A stretch of 64,000 nucleotides of DNA from Bacillota bacterium. Its GTDB lineage: Bacteria; Bacillota; Clostridia; Christensenellales; UBA1242. Positions within the stretch are counted from its first letter, which is position 1, and each line of letters begins with the position of its first letter. Location of the stretch: positions 7,267 through 71,266 of the forward strand of contig WRBH01000001.1 in assembly GCA_009784665.1 (NCBI GenBank). Reading direction: 5' to 3'. Positions 27,895-45,846 of the stretch are shown here, one piece after another. Both the position numbers and the translations under genes were made by a program. A model generated the notes under the pieces. It searched no databases and was not told where the DNA came from. It saw only the letters and a program-made list of their open reading frames with translations.

Positions 27895-28256
27895 TGGTGG
27901 AAGCGCCGGGATTGAACCCGGGTCCGAATGGCCGCCCAATTGATTTTCTACATGCTTAGTCACTTTGCTTTGAACTGCACACCTTACTTCTAGCGACAGA
28001 GACAAGGGTGAGACCGAGATATTTAGGTAGATACTCCTCCCGATAGAAAGTAACTACACAAGGCACTTTGTTGCCCCTGGGTCAGTAAAAGTGCGAAACT
28101 GTTTCCAGGGTTAGACCTTAAGCAGCCAGGGCCAAGTGGCCGTGACCAGCGTAAGAGGTCGAAGTAGATGTTTTTGCATCTAAAATTTGTTGCGTTTGAG
28201 GGCGCCCCCTGCATGCTTGTCAATCTTCTCTCCACCCGTCGAGTACTTTCGCCCCC
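27895..28256 (-). ncRNA. ssrA: transfer-messenger RNA (tmRNA)
   Basis: The 5' GGGGGCG pairs with the 3' CGCUUCC-ACCA and includes a G3-U pair. T-arm GGTTCAATCCCGG. Tag reading frame from GCA at 28177 to TAA at 28120-28118 encodes AKTSTSTSYAGHGHLALAA. 362 nt long. Confidence 0.93.
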
Positions 28257-39296: not shown

Positions 39297-39794
39297 CTAA
39301 AGCTCCAAATTTTGCAAGTATGAAATTATCTCAGGCAGTATCAATTGCTCGTTATGAAACTCCATTTTCTTCATTTCTTCAAGGGTTACCAGCTGAGCTT
39401 CACGAGCATATGACAACTCGTGCGTATCAAAACCACTGGTTGATATTTCTCCGCCGATGATTTCCCCCGCATAATATAACAATGTATAATGTGCAGGCCC
39501 TTTCTTTGGGTGAACAAAAAAGTTCGTTGCGGCGGTGATAATGTTACCTGGCTTGATCGTAAAACCTGTTTCTTCACGAACTTCGCGTACAAGTGCGTCG
39601 CGATGATCCTCACCTAGGTCAATGTGCCCACCGGGGAAGTCATAGCCGTTCTCCGTCCATTGCGGACTAATTAAAATTTTACCGTCACTAACTACAACGC
39701 CATATATACAAACGCGGTGTGTCAAGTCGGCGGGATTCACCTGTATCACTGTTCCATCAATTTTTCTTGCGATTATCATGCTTTTATCATACAC
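39297..39794 (-). CDS. NUDIX hydrolase
   Basis: Nudix box GGHIDLGEDHRDALVREVREETGF. Confidence 0.88.
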   Translation of the reverse strand: MYDKSMIIARKIDGTVIQVNPADLTHRVCIYGVVVSDGKILISPQWTENGYDFPGGHIDLGEDHRDALVREVREETGFTIKPGNIITAATNFFVHPKKGPAHYTLLYYAGEIIGGEISTSGFDTHELSYAREAQLVTLEEMKKMEFHNEQLILPEIISYLQNLEL

Positions 39795-39800
39795 TTAAGT

Positions 39801-40389
39801 ATGGCAAGCTTGCAAGTCCATTTGGCGATCGCGAAACTATTTGTGGAAAAGAATCCAGGACTTATCAAAGATAAGCAAGCATTTTACAATGGAAATGTAC
39901 TGCCTGACCTTGATCCTGACAAAGGTATCGCACTTCGGAATCAGGGGCGAGCGAATTGATTTAATCAAACGCCATAAAGAGAAAGTAGGTATAAAGAAAT
40001 TCTTGGAATTGAACAAATTGGACGATGACCTTAACTTGGGACGATTCCTGCATTTATATACCGACTGGGCTTATTATAATAAAATGTTTGATGATGATTA
40101 TTTGCGTAAGACGACTCTGGCAAATTTTGACACCAATCACCTATATACCATTGTTGAATTAGATAAAGGCATCAAGAATAAATACGGCATCTTGTATGGG
40201 ATTACATCTATGGAGAAACAACTGCTTACCGTAATCGACGAGTGGAATAAAAAGCAAGGCTCGCCAAAAGGAAAACTCCTCTTTTCACAAGAGGAGTTGC
40301 TGGCATTCATCGAGATGATATCGAATATTGACTTACTCTGCCCCGTCTTCCTCGCTGGCCTGAGCGATTGCGACACCCACGACTTTTGA
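39801..40389 (+). pseudogene. zinc-dependent phospholipase C-like / metal hydrolase-like gene split by a +1 frameshift near 39921-39926
   Basis: Frame A (39801-39956) gives MASLQVHLAIAKLF...YNGNVLPDLDPDK and then a stop. Frame B continues ...KVSHFGIRGERIDL...LHLYTDWAYYNKMF to 40389. A one-base shift joins the two frames. Confidence 0.5.
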
Positions 40390-42813
40390 ACCGCTGTCTT
40401 TCAGTTTCATAATTCGGACACCTTGTGTGTCACGGCCGATTTTACTGATGTCCCTTGCACGCGTACGGATAATTTGTCCGTTATCAGAAATCAACATGAC
40501 ATCTTGGTCGGGACGAACTTGCTTAAGGTTTACCAGAAGTCCTGTCTTTTCATTAAATGTTCCGGCCTTGATTCCCTTGCCCGCACGGGATTGTAGACGA
40601 TAGTCCTCGACATCAGATCGCTTTCCATATCCATTTGCGGAAACGGTCAAAATTTCGTGCCCTGGCAAGATTACTGTCATATCAACCACTCGGTCGTTTT
40701 TGTCTATGTTCATAGACTTGACACCCGCGGCTGTTCTGCCCATTGTTCGAACATCTTCTTCACTGAAACGAATACATTTACCACTGGATGCCGCCATCAA
40801 GATTTCATCACGACCAGATGTGAATTGAACGCTGATCAGTTCGTCTCCATCTTCCTTAAAGCTGATAGCTATTTTTCCAACGCGCATGATTTTTTTGAAT
40901 TCTTTGATAGATGTTTTCTTGATGATACCATTTTTTGTTGCCATCATCAGATGGCCTCTTTGATAATCCTCGATTGGAATACAGGATGTTATCCTTTCAC
41001 CCTCGGACAGTTGCAGCAAGTTAACAACCGCCCTACCCTTGGTGTTCTTGGCGGCTTCTGGGATTTCGTAGGTTTTGATACAGTATACCTTGCCCTTACT
41101 TGTAAAGAACAGTAGGTCATGATGGGTATTTGTTACGAATAATCTTTCGACAAAGTCCTCCTCACGAGTAGATTGGGTCTTGACACCTTTTCCACCACGG
41201 TTCTGTGCACGATATTCGGACAGAGGCAATCGCTTGACATAGCCAAGGTGGGACATCGAAACAACAACATCTTCCTTGTCAATCAGGTCACCGATTTCAA
41301 TTTCGCCAAAGTCATGGCTGACCTCGGTTCGCCTGTCTTCGCCGTACTTTTCTTTGACCTCCATCAATTCTGCCTTGATGATGTCCAGAACCTTTTGCTT
41401 GGACGCCAAGATGGATTTTAACTCGGCAATCAGAGCCTGCAACTCTTTCAGTTCTGCTTTTAACTTTTCAACCTCCAATTTTGCCAGTCGAGCAAGTCGC
41501 ATATCAAGAATTGCGTTTGCTTGTTTCTCACTAAGCAAGAATGCTTTGCAAAGTTGATCGCGGGCATCATCCCTATCCTCAGCCGAACGAATGATCCGAA
41601 TAACTTCGTTGATTTTGGCAAGAGCAATTACCAACCCTTCAACAATATGAGCTCTCTCTTCGGCTTTCTCTAGGTCAAACTTTGTCCTTCGTATAATAAC
41701 TTCCTTTTGGTGTTCAAGATAATGATATAGCATCTCTTTTAAATTCAGGAACTTTGGCTCGTTATTCACAAGGGCAAGGAATATAATTCCAGAGCTGGTC
41801 TGCATTTGCGTGTGCTTGTATAACAAATTCAGAACAACATTTGGTTGAGCATCTTTTTTCAAATCAATAACGATTCGGTTTCCCGTACGGTCGGAAAAGT
41901 CGTTAACCTTGGAAATCCCTTCGATTTTTTTTGCCTCGACAAGTTCGGATATTTGTGCGACTAATCTACTTTTGTTAACTTGGAAAGGAATTTCAGTGAC
42001 GATGATTTGTTTGCGGCCGTTTTTGCCTTCCTCGAAATCGGCTCGGGCCCGCAAGACCACTCCACCACGACCTGTCTTGTATGCATGACGCAATGCGGCA
42101 CGACCCATAACCGTTCCGCCTGTTGGATAATCAGGAGCAGGGATAATTTTGATTAATTGTTCAATTGTGACCTCTGGATCGTCTATCAAGGCTACGACGC
42201 CGTCAATAACTTCATTTAAGTTGTGAGGCGGGATGTTTGTCGCCATACCAACTGCAATACCATCCGAACCGTTGACAAGCAAGTTTGGGAATCGTGCAGG
42301 CAAAACAACTGGTTGCTCTTCCTGTTCATCATAGTTCGGGACAAAGTCAACGGTGTTCTTGTCAATTTCGCGAAGTAACTCGCCCGAGATCGCGGCTAAT
42401 CTTGCCTCGGTATAACGCATAGCAGCGGGCTTGTCATCGTCCATAGAACCAAAGTTTCCTTGCCCATCAATTAGGGGGTGCCGCATAGACCATGGTTGGG
42501 CCATACGAACCAACGCATCGTAAATGGAACTGTCACCGTGCGGGTGGTATTTACCCATACAATCACCAACAATACGCGCCGATTTTTTGTGCGGGCGGTT
42601 GTTGCTTAGGCCCAACTCGTGTGCCGTGAATAAAATTCGCCTGTGAACGGGCTTTAACCCATCCCGAACATCGGGAATCGCACGCGACATGTTTACCATC
42701 ATGGCATAACTCATGAACGAATTCTTTAACTCGTTCTCTATCCGTACTTTTAGAATCTTCGTCTTATCAACGATTTCCTCCTCACCCGGCTTGACCTCTT
42801 TAATTTCGTCCAT
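40333..42813 (-). CDS. gyrA: DNA gyrase subunit A
   Basis: 826 aa. [25 protein letters not shown] and [10 protein letters not shown] (active-site Tyr), plus C-terminal beta-pinwheel repeats. AAAGGAGGG SD. Confidence 0.97.
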
Positions 42814-42825
42814 TTATACCCTCCT

Positions 42826-43224
42826 TTACCCTGCCAACTTCTCTTCTATTTTCCCTACCATTCTTTCGAAATCATTCTCTATGTTCTTATCCGTGTAACC
42901 AAACCATTCTTTAACTGAACCCACAGGATTTTGTGCAGAGGTTATTTCAATTTCTACCCCCGAAGTACACATAAACCCCAGTATCCCTCTTCCATGATTC
43001 ATGGAAAGCACATATTTTTTCCCTTCCTCCTCCGAGTCCAAAATGTAGCCTGTATCTTTTTTTGATACCCTTGTCTTTTTATCCAGGAATTTCGCTATAT
43101 CTTTACATTCATTCGCAAGCCTGCTGATCTGTCGCTGGGTTTCGTTAAAGTTCTCGTGGGTCTCTTCATTTTTCAGATCAATATATCGCAGCATTCCTGG
43201 GCTTAACTTGTCTCTTTTTTTCAT
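42826..43224 (-). CDS. hypothetical protein (132 aa) inside the gyrB-gyrA operon
   Basis: GAAGGAGGTG SD 5 nt upstream of the ATG. Its stop lies 12 nt before the gyrA ATG. I recognise no family. Confidence 0.65.
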   Translation of the reverse strand: MKKRDKLSPGMLRYIDLKNEETHENFNETQRQISRLANECKDIAKFLDKKTRVSKKDTGYILDSEEEGKKYVLSMNHGRGILGFMCTSGVEIEITSAQNPVGSVKEWFGYTDKNIENDFERMVGKIEEKLAG

Positions 43225-43256
43225 ATTACACCTCCTTCAAGTCCCATTTCCTTACT

Positions 43257-43556
43257 TTACCCAAATATGTCCGCTATCCTATCTCGAGTATTTGTACCGC
43301 CTTCCTTTTCTTTTCGCTTGCTTTGCTCGCTGATAATTACTGCTTGGGCTTCTTTCACCTGAGCCTTAAAATCTGCAAGATGCTCGTCCGACATTTCTGG
43401 CACATGAGATATTTGATGTCCTAAAACTTTCGACATGATACCAGAGTTCTTCAAATTTTCTAACTCCTTGCCCTTATCACGCTGGGTGACTTGTTCCCCA
43501 AGAATTTGCAAGTCGCTTTTTTCCATCCCAGCTCTTTTCATGCTGCTTAAATCCAT
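43257..43556 (-). CDS. hypothetical protein (99 aa) inside the gyrB-gyrA operon
   Basis: The ATG lies 2 nt after the gyrB TAA, and the GGAGGTG SD is formed by the last gyrB codons. Helical and Lys/Glu-rich. Confidence 0.6.
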   Translation of the reverse strand: MDLSSMKRAGMEKSDLQILGEQVTQRDKGKELENLKNSGIMSKVLGHQISHVPEMSDEHLADFKAQVKEAQAVIISEQSKRKEKEGGTNTRDRIADIFG

Positions 43557-43558
43557 GG

Positions 43559-45472
43559 TTACACCTCCACATTGCCGAATTGCGCGGCGTGTTCTTCGAT
43601 GAATGCACGACGCAGCTCTGGCTTGTCCCCCATCAGGGTGCTGAATATCTCGTCCGCCATGAACGCATCTTCCATAGATACCTGTCCCAGCGTTCTGTGT
43701 TCGGGGTTCAGGGTTGTCTCCCACAACTGTTCTGCGTTCATTTCACCCAGACCCTTGAAGCGCTTGATTTCCGCCCCTGTACGGTTCATCTTTGAAAGTT
43801 CTTTCTCGTCATAAACATAGGTGGATGATTTTCCTCGCTTGACCTCGTACAATGGCGGCTGGGCTATATAAACATGACCATTTTCAATCAGCGGTCGCAT
43901 AAACCGGTAAAAGAATGTCAGCAACAAAATTCGAATGTGCGAACCGTCCACATCCGCGTCAGTCATAATTATGATCTTGCCATAACGCAGTTTTTCCAAT
44001 TTAAAGTCATCCTGAATTCCACAACCAAACGCTGTTATCATGTTTTTAATTTCGCTGTTTTCCAGAACTTTACTCAAGCGTGCCTTTTCCACATTAAGAA
44101 TCTTACCCTTAAGCGGCAGGATTGCCTGGAATCGCTTGTCACGCCCTGATTTGGCTGTTCCGCCCGCACTGTCACCCTCGACGACATAAATCTCTGTGTG
44201 TGGCCCTTCCTCGGAACAGTCTGACAATTTTCCTGGGAGAGTACTGTTTGATAGCTTCCCTTTTGACCTAGATAAATCACGGGCGTTACGGGCAGCCTCA
44301 CGGGCGTTACGGGCAGTTACGCATTTAAGGATAAGTTCTTTTGCCTCTTTGGGATGTTCTTCCATAAAGTTTGTGAACCCATCGGTTACCGCCTTTTCGA
44401 CCTCGCCACGCATAAAGGAATTTCCCAACTTGGTCTTGGTTTGCCCCTCGAATTGAGGATCCATCAATTTTACGGAAATAATCGCAACAATTCCCTCAAG
44501 CGTATCATCAATTGTCAGTTTGTCATTTTCGTTTTTTAATTGATTGGTCTTTAATCCATATTGATTAATTACTTTGTTCAGGGCGTTACGGAATCCGGTC
44601 AAGTGCACCCCGCCCTCTTCGGTGTTAATGTTGTTCGCGTAGCTATGAACATTGTCGCTGTACCCATCGTTATATGCAAATGCAACCTCGACCTCGGATT
44701 GCTTGCCAACTTTGTGGATATAGATTGTTTGCGGGATGACAAGAGTTTTGTTTTTGTTCAGGTGGTCGACGAACTCGACAATACCGCCTTTGTAGTAGAA
44801 CTTGTCTTCACGCTTGCGTCCCGCGCGTTCATCTTTGGCAATGATGGTCAGGCCTTTGTTCAAGAATGCCACCTCTCGCAACCTTGCACGCATAGTGTCA
44901 TAGTTAAAGTCAACCGTCTCAAAAATATCACGGTCAGGCATAAATGTCACCCGTGTTCCGCGTTTCTTTGTTGGGCCGACGACCGCTAAGGCTCTTTGAG
45001 GGATTCCGCGGTTGTATGTTTGCTTGTGCTCTTTTCCATCTTGCCAGACAATAACATCCAGCCATTCACTTAACGCGTTAACAACGGAAATACCAACACC
45101 ATGCAGACCACCCGAGACCTTGTAACCACCGTCACCAAATTTTCCACCAGCGTGCAACTTGGTAAATACAACCTCGACCGCAGACTTTTTCTCGGTCTTG
45201 TGAATACCTGTTGGAATACCACGGCCGTTATCGGTTACGGACACAGAACCGTCCTTGTGTATAACAACCTCTATTTGGTCACAATGCCCTGCAAGGGCCT
45301 CGTCAACAGAGTTATCGACGATTTCAACAATCAAGTGGTGCAAGCCACGACTGTCTGTCGACCCGATATACATGCCGGGACGCTTTCTGACCGGGTCCAA
45401 ACCTTCCAAGACCTGGATCTGGTCTTCGCCGTATTTAGTTGTAATTTTTGCAATATTTTCTTTCTTTGCCAT
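43559..45472 (-). CDS. gyrB: DNA gyrase subunit B
   Basis: GHKL ATPase motifs (LEGLDPVRKRPGMYIG, GGLHGVG), the Toprim EIYVVEGDSAGG, and a PLKGKILNVEKA-type motif. The start is moved to MAKKENI at 45472. Confidence 0.97.
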   Translation of the reverse strand: MAKKENIAKITTKYGEDQIQVLEGLDPVRKRPGMYIGSTDSRGLHHLIVEIVDNSVDEALAGHCDQIEVVIHKDGSVSVTDNGRGIPTGIHKTEKKSAVEVVFTKLHAGGKFGDGGYKVSGGLHGVGISVVNALSEWLDVIVWQDGKEHKQTYNRGIPQRALAVVGPTKKRGTRVTFMPDRDIFETVDFNYDTMRARLREVAFLNKGLTIIAKDERAGRKREDKFYYKGGIVEFVDHLNKNKTLVIPQTIYIHKVGKQSEVEVAFAYNDGYSDNVHSYANNINTEEGGVHLTGFRNALNKVINQYGLKTNQLKNENDKLTIDDTLEGIVAIISVKLMDPQFEGQTKTKLGNSFMRGEVEKAVTDGFTNFMEEHPKEAKELILKCVTARNAREAARNARDLSRSKGKLSNSTLPGKLSDCSEEGPHTEIYVVEGDSAGGTAKSGRDKRFQAILPLKGKILNVEKARLSKVLENSEIKNMITAFGCGIQDDFKLEKLRYGKIIIMTDADVDGSHIRILLLTFFYRFMRPLIENGHVYIAQPPLYEVKRGKSSTYVYDEKELSKMNRTGAEIKRFKGLGEMNAEQLWETTLNPEHRTLGQVSMEDAFMADEIFSTLMGDKPELRRAFIEEHAAQFGNVEV

Positions 45473-45480
45473 ATCTGACA

Positions 45481-45510
45481 AGTATACCATATATAGGTAG
45501 GAACTGGCAA
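45481..45510 (-). promoter_or_regulatory. leaderless promoter of gyrB
   Basis: TTGCCA (45510-45505), 18 nt, TATACT (45486-45481), 8 nt, ATG 45472. Confidence 0.6.
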
Positions 45511-45576: not shown

Positions 45577-45846
45577 TTATTGGTCTTTTTCCCATTCGTA
45601 TTTGCATTTTCCTGCTTGGTATACTGGGCAGATTGCACTTTGGTCACAAACACCAGAATAATGCTCGTCATGGAACAAACCGATCACTTTACCACTAAGT
45701 CCTGTATCATTTGGTTGGAATTGAACCTCCCAATCCGCAAATCTCATAAAACCGTTCGGGTGTATCTTTCCAGGGATTCTTTTCAGTCTGGCATCAGAAA
45801 TCTTAAATTTGTCACCTTCATTTAACTCGCATAAAGTGTTTTCCAT
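45577..45846 (-). CDS. hypothetical protein (89 aa)
   Basis: The start is moved to MENTLCELNEG, behind AGAGGAGGTAG. Confidence 0.55.
   Translation of the reverse strand: MENTLCELNEGDKFKISDARLKRIPGKIHPNGFMRFADWEVQFQPNDTGLSGKVIGLFHDEHYSGVCDQSAICPVYQAGKCKYEWEKDQ

Follow-up and report, generated by a model that had tools for sequence, protein, structure and literature searches.

Two orphan genes between gyrB and gyrA of an uncultured Bacillota bacterium as probable accessory cargo at a fast-turnover junction

Why should two small genes stand between gyrB and gyrA, inside the gyrase operon of an uncultured Bacillota bacterium? The question is raised by a 64,000-nucleotide (nt) stretch of contig WRBH01000001.1 (hereafter the window, meaning the whole stretch of DNA that was analysed), in which two open reading frames (ORFs) of 99 and 132 amino acids (aa), orf99 and orf132, separate the two gyrase genes. 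A preliminary description of this DNA had proposed that they form a candidate gyrase regulator or chaperone, or else an addiction (toxin-antitoxin) module exploiting an essential operon. We propose instead that this gene pair is accessory or selfish cargo specific to one lineage, located at a small, fast-turnover insertion hotspot at the gyrB-gyrA junction in this Bacillota group (whose identifiable members are termite-gut metagenome-assembled genomes, MAGs), and we put the probability of this reading, hotspot and cargo taken jointly, at roughly 0.6. The proposal of a strain-specific passenger follows from two observations, namely that the pair occurs in one lineage only and that unrelated genes are inserted at the same junction in relatives.

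The state of the junction in related genomes carries most of the argument. In nine relatives with 74-83% GyrB identity (L005, L008, L009, L014, L090, L091, L092, L094 and L096), the gap between gyrB and gyrA is 1-48 nt vs. 745 nt here, in line with the earlier statement that the two genes are normally adjacent. By this comparison, the 745-nt DNA is shown to be an insertion relative to the ancestral, adjacent state. Alignment of the window with the locus of the closest relative found (L010, GyrA 91% identical) runs at ~90% identity up to the gyrB TAA and is then lost. Five further genomes of the clade (L010, L011, L013, L093 and L095) have inserts at the junction, all of them unlike, and cargo is also present at the junction of more distant genomes (Table 1). 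No similarity was found between any junction cargo and orf99 or orf132. A common ancestry of the cargos was considered as well and rejected, as all-against-all comparisons with blastp, blastn and tblastx gave only one pair of paralogues, both from L013.

In a GyrA tree (simple neighbour-joining, without bootstrap), genomes with an insert are distributed over three subclades, each beside an insert-free neighbour, and sisters differ in content. Judged from sequence, this is apparently a matter of repeated independent gain or turnover, not of one ancestral insertion. Inserts of at least one gene were present in 6 of 15 clade genomes; outside the clade, the count was 4 of 53 (Fisher p = 0.006, kinship ignored). 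The preliminary description had recommended a survey of related genomes for an arrangement with two genes between gyrB and gyrA; what the relatives hold are empty junctions or unrelated cargo, not orf99 and orf132.

The carriers of the pair are few and nearly identical. The nearest relatives of the host are termite-gut MAGs, the nearest named ones being Co191P1 and Lab288P1, both part of a higher-termite gut MAG series (PMC7024585). Four contigs, each from a different sample, encode the exact orf99 protein; the gene order on all of them is gyrB-orf99-orf132-gyrA, and their DNA is 99.9-100% identical to the window. Only 2 differences in 2,381 nt were seen among samples of the strain, which makes a ratio of nonsynonymous to synonymous substitution rates (dN/dS) impossible to obtain. 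When the exact GyrB and GyrA sequences were looked up, no empty-site or variant contig of the same strain was on record. The pair is thus, as far as these records indicate, confined to one strain-level lineage.

This distribution bears directly on the idea of a gyrase regulator or chaperone. A dedicated gyrase accessory module (a regulator, a chaperone or a factor protecting from a gyrase poison), acquired recently in this lineage and kept in stoichiometry by translational coupling, would fit the seemingly obligatory co-expression of the pair with GyrB and GyrA. Moreover, small-protein gyrase modulators are diverse and often belong to no family, e.g. the phage protein Gip (bioRxiv 10.1101/2021.01.28.428610). 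However, the pair is missing from every relative examined, including the sister L010, whose gyrase is 91% identical and which has unrelated genes at this place. Junction cargo elsewhere also includes genes for which no link to gyrase is expected (MgtE, a probable restriction-modification pair, MNT-HepT, Gly/Ala-rich hydrophobic ORFs). With the pair limited to a single strain-level lineage, nine relatives having adjacent gyrase genes and L010 having different ones, the proposal of a regulator or chaperone is not supported, and we regard a dedicated gyrase module as very unlikely.

Homology searches did not connect the two proteins to anything known. Both gave matches at chance level only in Pfam, NCBIfam, PHROGs and PADLOC (hmmscan vs. 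Pfam at E ≤ 10 returned unrelated families), and neither was matched below E = 0.03 in a PDB sequence search. A k-mer-indexed search of 5.8 billion proteins found orf99 and orf132 themselves only, and an exhaustive phmmer search with orf132 against 1.84 billion cluster representatives found orf132 itself and one spurious repeat protein. No relative of either was seen by tblastn against phage and plasmid collections or in pattern scans of viral contigs, and no paralogue or source DNA was present elsewhere in the 64-kb window. The known gyrase modulators (YacG, GyrI/SbmC, the pentapeptide proteins Qnr/MfpA, CcdB and ParE), which the preliminary description had found to be unlike the two proteins, indeed gave no match at E ≤ 10 in Pfam, a library that should include these families; this too speaks against a gyrase module. 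The two small proteins had been called unknown, and they are still without a detectable family. Two candidates were set aside. P0003, a beta-helix protein of 1931 aa in which five repeats are nearly identical, reached E = 3.6e-6 with orf132, and was rejected as its homologue because the 43.6 bits are summed over five ~9-bit stretches on a 50-residue low-complexity strand region. A likeness of orf132 to GIY-YIG, visible by eye ('GYI…YVL'), is given no support by Pfam.

Both products are hydrophilic and near neutral (isoelectric point, pI, 6.3 for orf99 and 6.75 for orf132), with no hydrophobic segments, and would be soluble cytosolic small proteins. In AlphaFold models built from single sequences, orf99 is all helical, with four helices (predicted local distance difference test score, pLDDT, 67.6 and predicted template modelling score, pTM, 0.26; low-to-moderate confidence), and orf132 has an N-terminal helix, five strands and C-terminal helices (pLDDT 41.3; low confidence). 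These models appear to agree, at low-to-moderate confidence, with the earlier description of orf99 as helical and of orf132 as helical first and beta-rich afterwards. With Foldseek vs. PDB there was no match to the orf99 model of low-to-moderate confidence, and the low-confidence orf132 model gave none at E ≤ 0.001 (best E-value 0.55, template modelling score, TM, ≤ 0.32). Frataxin/CyaY-like helix-sheet-helix topologies recurred in the orf132 list, and were discarded as unusable at E ≥ 0.55 on a weak model.

How firmly is the pair built into the operon? The four genes gyrB, orf99, orf132 and gyrA lie head to tail on the minus strand, and their coordinates and order, as first described, match the ORF listing and the sequence. 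The flanking genes are those of gyrase and not of topoisomerase IV, as the parE/parC models scored below their cutoffs and TIGR01059 and TIGR01063 above theirs; a QNRGGKG motif in the gyrA product is presumably the GyrA box. The gyrB TAA (43561-43559) is followed by 'CC' and then by the orf99 ATG, so that the gap is 2 nt, and the GGAGGTG Shine-Dalgarno site of orf99 consists of the terminal gyrB codons (…GTG GAG GTG TAA). Between the orf99 stop (43259-43257) and the orf132 ATG there is a 32-nt spacer with GAAGGAGGTGTAAT; upstream of orf132 lies GAAGGAGGTG, with a GGAGGTG Shine-Dalgarno site of its own. The gyrA ATG begins 12 nt after the orf132 stop (42828-42826) and has its own GGAGG. The spacing and the ribosome-binding sites reported earlier for orf99 and orf132 are therefore those of the sequence.

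The transcription signals agree with this picture. A consensus scan found no terminator-like hairpin between gyrB and gyrA, such sites being present only upstream of gyrB (45554-45539) and just past gyrA (40298-40274), and the sole promoter-like match between the genes is a weak one (9/12), located within orf99. Of the earlier claim that the operon contains no internal terminator or promoter, the part on terminators thus holds, and apart from this one weak match no promoter of the insert's own was seen. An Rfam search for concealed RNA elements gave no family match in the region. The insert is purine-rich on the coding strand, and its G+C content is 0.39-0.43 vs. ~0.46 in the gyrase genes. The Shine-Dalgarno sites and the absent terminator support the view that the pair is locked into the gyrB-gyrA transcription and translation unit. 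We infer from these signals that both proteins would be made from the gyrBA mRNA, by closely spaced reinitiation along the chain gyrB stop, 2 nt, orf99, 32 nt, orf132, 12 nt, gyrA.

The start of gyrB itself is ambiguous (45472-45490, minus strand), the longest ORF having 643 aa vs. 637 aa in the NCBI product, which starts at Met7 (45472); P0004 is the 637-aa version, with 100% identity. The shorter form is favoured because the -10 element of the best promoter-like site, which ends at 45481, overlaps the first ATG.

Table 1. Features of the gyrB-orf99-orf132-gyrA unit (window coordinates) and cargo at the gyrB-gyrA junction of related genomes (coordinates of the respective loci)
Feature	Position	Strand	Description
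gyrB	45490..43559	minus	643-aa ORF; TIGR01059 937 bits (cutoff 882)
orf99	43556..43257	minus	99 aa; NCBI MCL2586667.1, 'hypothetical protein' of Bacillota MAG
orf132	43224..42826	minus	132 aa; NCBI MCL2586666.1, 'hypothetical protein' of Bacillota MAG
gyrA	42813..40333	minus	826 aa; TIGR01063 1141 bits (cutoff 877)
Whole insert between gyrase genes	42814..43558	minus	745 nt, lineage-specific
Direct repeat GGAGGTGTAA, copy 1	43559..43568	minus	last gyrB codons and stop; orf99 Shine-Dalgarno site
Direct repeat GGAGGTGTAA, copy 2	43226..43235	minus	followed by T and orf132 ATG; orf132 Shine-Dalgarno site
Terminator-like hairpin 3' of gyrA	40274..40298	minus	probable operon end; consensus scan
Best promoter-like site of operon	45481..45510	minus	TTGCCA, 18 nt, TATACT, upstream TG; consensus match only
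L010 cargo			290-aa DinD (NF008573, 390 bits; Bro-N domain) and 71-aa ORF; GyrA 91%, closest relative found
L011 cargo			three small ORFs (93, 88 and 78 aa); no family match
L013 cargo	L013:3468-3955		two ORFs (88 and 73 aa), paralogues
L093 cargo	L093:3112-3279		55-aa Gly/Ala-rich hydrophobic ORF, tightly coupled; probable membrane peptide
L095 cargo	L095:5434-5873		92-aa ORF with Gly/Ala-rich hydrophobic stretch; probable membrane segment
L032 cargo (more distant)	L032:3335-3977		MNT-HepT toxin-antitoxin pair
L015 cargo (more distant)	L015:2376-3939		N6/N4 (N6_N4) DNA methyltransferase and 203-aa ORF, probable restriction enzyme
L038 cargo (more distant)	L038:2946-3932		MgtE/CBS transporter
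L017 cargo (more distant)			103-aa ORF

Two of the cargos deserve a separate remark. The 88-aa and 73-aa ORFs of L013 are paralogous (35% identity, E = 4e-10), and they represent a tandem duplication of a family-less small protein within the gyrase operon. The 92-aa ORF of L095 is preceded by a nested hairpin of ~135 nt (arms 5434-5453/5551-5570 and 5471-5502/5504-5535), which may be a small repeat element.

It is also conceivable that orf99 and orf132 are functionless or near-neutral ORFs, either decayed remnants of a larger element or proto-genes, tolerated for preserving the reinitiation chain that gyrA translation needs. Their single-lineage spread, the lack of homologues and the low-confidence orf132 structure would agree with this, and so would the DinD of L010, whose match ends ~13 positions before the end of the NF008573 profile and which terminates in a copy of the gyrB tail, a picture of messy insertion and decay. 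On the other hand, the two intact ORFs occupy 93% of the insert, and in composition-matched shuffles of the 745 nt, only 5 of 40,000 strands contained two ORFs as long as these (≥ 132 aa and ≥ 99 aa). Both ORFs have strong, correctly spaced Shine-Dalgarno sites. Their codon usage is also indistinguishable from that of established host genes: in a log-odds model of codon usage, for which 24 long window genes served as the training set, orf99 scored 0.215 and orf132 0.195 in the annotated frame vs. 0.218 +/- 0.069 for host genes (scored in 100-codon windows), and the score was negative in all five alternative frames of both. These data support the view that orf99 and orf132 are real-looking genes, beyond chance ORFs, and we find the absence of any function an unlikely explanation.

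If they are genes, a pair of this kind might be a novel type II-like toxin-antitoxin or addiction module, in which the first gene, orf99, would supply a helical antitoxin and the second, orf132, an alpha/beta toxin. Such a pair would be self-stabilising in an essential operon, possibly with gyrase as the target of its toxin. The gene order, the sizes (99 and 132 aa), the 32-nt spacing and the shared strand all fit the generic architecture, and an orphan, strain-specific spread is typical of conflict genes. Addiction-type modules do land at this junction, as can be seen from the bona fide MNT-HepT pair in L032 and from the methyltransferase with its probable restriction enzyme in L015. Nevertheless, no toxin-antitoxin or defence model of Pfam, PADLOC or NCBIfam was matched (no toxin or antitoxin family at E ≤ 0.01 for either protein), and the Pfam scan recognised no DNA-binding domain in orf99 (no helix-turn-helix, ribbon-helix-helix or AbrB). 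No own promoter for autoregulation was seen upstream of orf99 in the consensus-based scan, the pI values are not those of the usual acidic and basic pair, and, in contrast to toxin-antitoxin families, which as a rule are widespread and mobile, orf99 and orf132 have no relatives. The addiction module of the preliminary description thus gains circumstantial support only, coming from MNT-HepT, the methyltransferase/probable restriction enzyme pair and DinD at the junction in other genomes, but nothing marks orf99 and orf132 themselves as such a pair. We hold this possibility to be unlikely.

Traces of the insertion event may still be recognisable. The 10-mer GGAGGTGTAA has two copies in 64 kb vs. 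0.07 expected, and these copies flank orf99. A related but longer pattern is seen in L010, where the dinD ORF ends in a 42-nt, 71%-identical copy of the gyrB tail (L010:168-209 and L010:1106-1147; contig Ga0123352_10089138), the DinD end being '…FDKDVAEFGNVEV' ('…AEFGNVEV') vs. the GyrB end '…IEDNAAQFGNVEV*'. The dinD gene is therefore flanked by direct repeats of the gyrB terminus, a pattern that is expected of, and thus suggests, single-crossover or att-like (attachment-site-like) integration at the gyrB 3' end. Phages and phage satellites commonly carry DinD homologues, and one in a Christensenellales phage has 57% identity. A longer duplication of the gyrB tail, of the type found in L010, was also looked for in the window and rejected, since only the 10-mer matches; past it, there is no similarity between the two copies (9 of 32 positions match). 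There are 10 GGAGGTG sites in the whole window. As the window copies are unrelated past the 10-mer, we keep stepwise insertion as plausible rather than demonstrated.

A further string, GGAGGTGT(A/G)(A/G)-T-ATG (GGAGGTGTRR-T-ATG), links gyrB straight to gyrA in L091 (L091:5920-5936), and is present also before orf132 (window 43222-43235) and before orf71 of L010 (L010:1137-1150). It may be a relic of an ancestral gyrB/gyrA junction spaced by 1 nt.

Taking these observations together, the accessory-cargo reading might work as follows. The DNA of orf99 and orf132 would have been inserted in the few nucleotides that separate the gyrB stop from the gyrA ribosome-binding site. Arrival was possibly stepwise, with orf132 first and orf99 second, because orf99 is the gene flanked by GGAGGTGTAA copies, which resemble the gyrB-tail repeats around dinD of L010. 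The cargo may then have been retained because its expression would be guaranteed and because imprecise deletion would harm an essential operon. The job of the two proteins would most likely be that of a mobile-element or conflict-type accessory and not gyrase control.

Several points weigh against this interpretation. No mobility gene, att site or donor sequence of the insert was identified. The GGAGGTGTAA copies differ past the 10-mer, and a strong Shine-Dalgarno site combined with TAA could come from chance or from selection for coupling. The host-like codon usage speaks against a very recent foreign origin. The hotspot statistic has no phylogenetic correction and is drawn from metagenome contigs. 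Finally, the site inside the gyrase operon could still mean a gyrase-linked role that is invisible to homology searches. A bolder idea along these lines is that in this Bacillota group the junction is a landing site specifically targeted by promoterless micro-cassettes, which copy the gyrB-terminal Shine-Dalgarno site and stop and so hijack the coupling, and that orf99 and orf132 form a hitherto unseen two-protein module with an action tied to gyrase, e.g. a toxin directed at gyrase together with its antidote, or a means of protection against a gyrase poison. We regard it as distinctly unlikely.

The surroundings of the operon are variable too. When 14 genes around gyrase were compared with the relatives' loci, counterparts were found only for gyrA, gyrB, MetRS (methionyl-tRNA synthetase) and NUDIX. 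In the 20-kb locus L001, 9 of 23 called genes have no Pfam match; as orphan genes are this common in the genome, two more of them carry less significance. The gyrase neighbourhood is thus, by all appearances, generally in flux. A 182-aa ORF without a Pfam match (window 39841-40389, plus strand) lies between gyrA and a NUDIX gene (39297-39794, minus strand), sharing 57 nt with the 3' end of gyrA. No counterpart of it was present in the relatives' loci compared, and in L010 the NUDIX gene follows gyrA directly, coupled by an overlapping TGATG, so that the 182-aa ORF would be a second lineage-specific insertion near the operon. Just upstream of gyrB there is an 89-aa, Cys-containing ORF (window 45577-45846, minus strand), followed by the G+C-rich terminator-like hairpin at 45554-45539; it has no match in Pfam, PHROGs or PADLOC and no counterpart in the relatives' loci. 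Farther away, a transfer-messenger RNA (tmRNA) gene is located at window 27895-28256 (minus strand; Rfam RF00023, 114.6 bits, full length), although ARAGORN found no tRNA or tmRNA in the window.

What would follow if the passenger reading holds? It would be one more case of strain-specific orphans at a recombination hotspot, and a caution that embedding in an essential operon does not equal a function tied to that operon. The comparative pattern is perhaps the more useful by-product, with unrelated small genes placed exactly at the gyrB-gyrA junction in 6 of 15 genomes and one clear gyrB-tail duplication. Bona fide selfish modules (MNT-HepT, the methyltransferase with a probable restriction enzyme, and the phage-type dinD) share this site in other genomes, which suggests that tight junctions of essential conserved operons can give small selfish or accessory genes a safe place. 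If either protein did bind gyrase, it would represent a new class of gyrase-directed protein, relevant to topoisomerase biology and to inhibitor discovery.

Among known systems, the pair may first be compared with inteins and homing endonucleases. Selfish elements are known to target conserved essential genes, examples being the inteins of GyrA and GyrB and the free-standing homing endonucleases between conserved phage genes. Our case is like these in its sporadic presence at a precise position in or beside an essential gene, with flanks that give homology for spread. It is unlike them in that the cargo differs per genome and is not one homing element. Pfam revealed no HNH, GIY-YIG, LAGLIDADG or intein signature in orf99 or orf132, and gyrA scores far under the cutoff of the intein-containing GyrA model. 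An integron cassette is not indicated either: the spacers are only 32 and 12 nt long, shorter than the imperfect inverted repeat of attC (at least ~57 nt), the insert has no inverted repeat apart from a weak pair (21 nt, 76%) within orf132, and there is no integrase among the neighbouring genes.

With type II/VII toxin-antitoxin pairs, such as MNT-HepT of L032, orf99 and orf132 share the architecture of two small, adjacent, co-directional and strain-specific genes, and the junction also houses a real pair of this type in another genome. They differ in having no family homology, autoregulated promoter, DNA-binding antitoxin domain or charge asymmetry. Gyrase modulators and poisons (YacG, GyrI/SbmC, Qnr/MfpA, CcdB, ParE and phage Gip) are likewise small soluble proteins, and orf99 and orf132 are linked to gyrase genetically; they differ, however, in lacking a Pfam match at E ≤ 10 and in not being conserved with gyrase in relatives. 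No gyrase modulator is known to be encoded between gyrB and gyrA.

In genomic terms, the junction resembles the hotspots of horizontal gene transfer between core genes that were described by Oliveira et al. (2017, PMC5635113). In both cases, two conserved core genes bound a spot whose content is wholly different in close relatives, gene turnover is rapid, mobility genes are not recognisable, and exchange is likely to occur by recombination in the flanking core genes. Here, the flanks are gyrB and gyrA, which are among the most conserved genes of the genome, and the clade has these same core flanks with nine empty sites and five alternative cargos. The junction studied by us is, however, inside an essential, translationally chained operon and holds only 0-1.6 kb, and its cargo is promoterless and co-oriented, so that expression of gyrA requires read-through of the cargo.

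A precedent at the very same place is Caldalkalibacillus thermarum, in which gyrB is reported to be separated from gyrA by a 4.7-kb insert that includes Mg/molybdate import genes (PMC7561548). As in our window, unrelated genes separate a gyrB and a gyrA that are otherwise adjacent, and L038 likewise has a MgtE-type gene there; the insert of C. thermarum is, however, a larger, multi-gene block with annotated functions vs. a coupled pair of small orphan ORFs here. On the whole, the comparative evidence points to orf99 and orf132 being strain-specific cargo of an ordinary kind, though neatly placed, and not a conserved system linked to gyrase.

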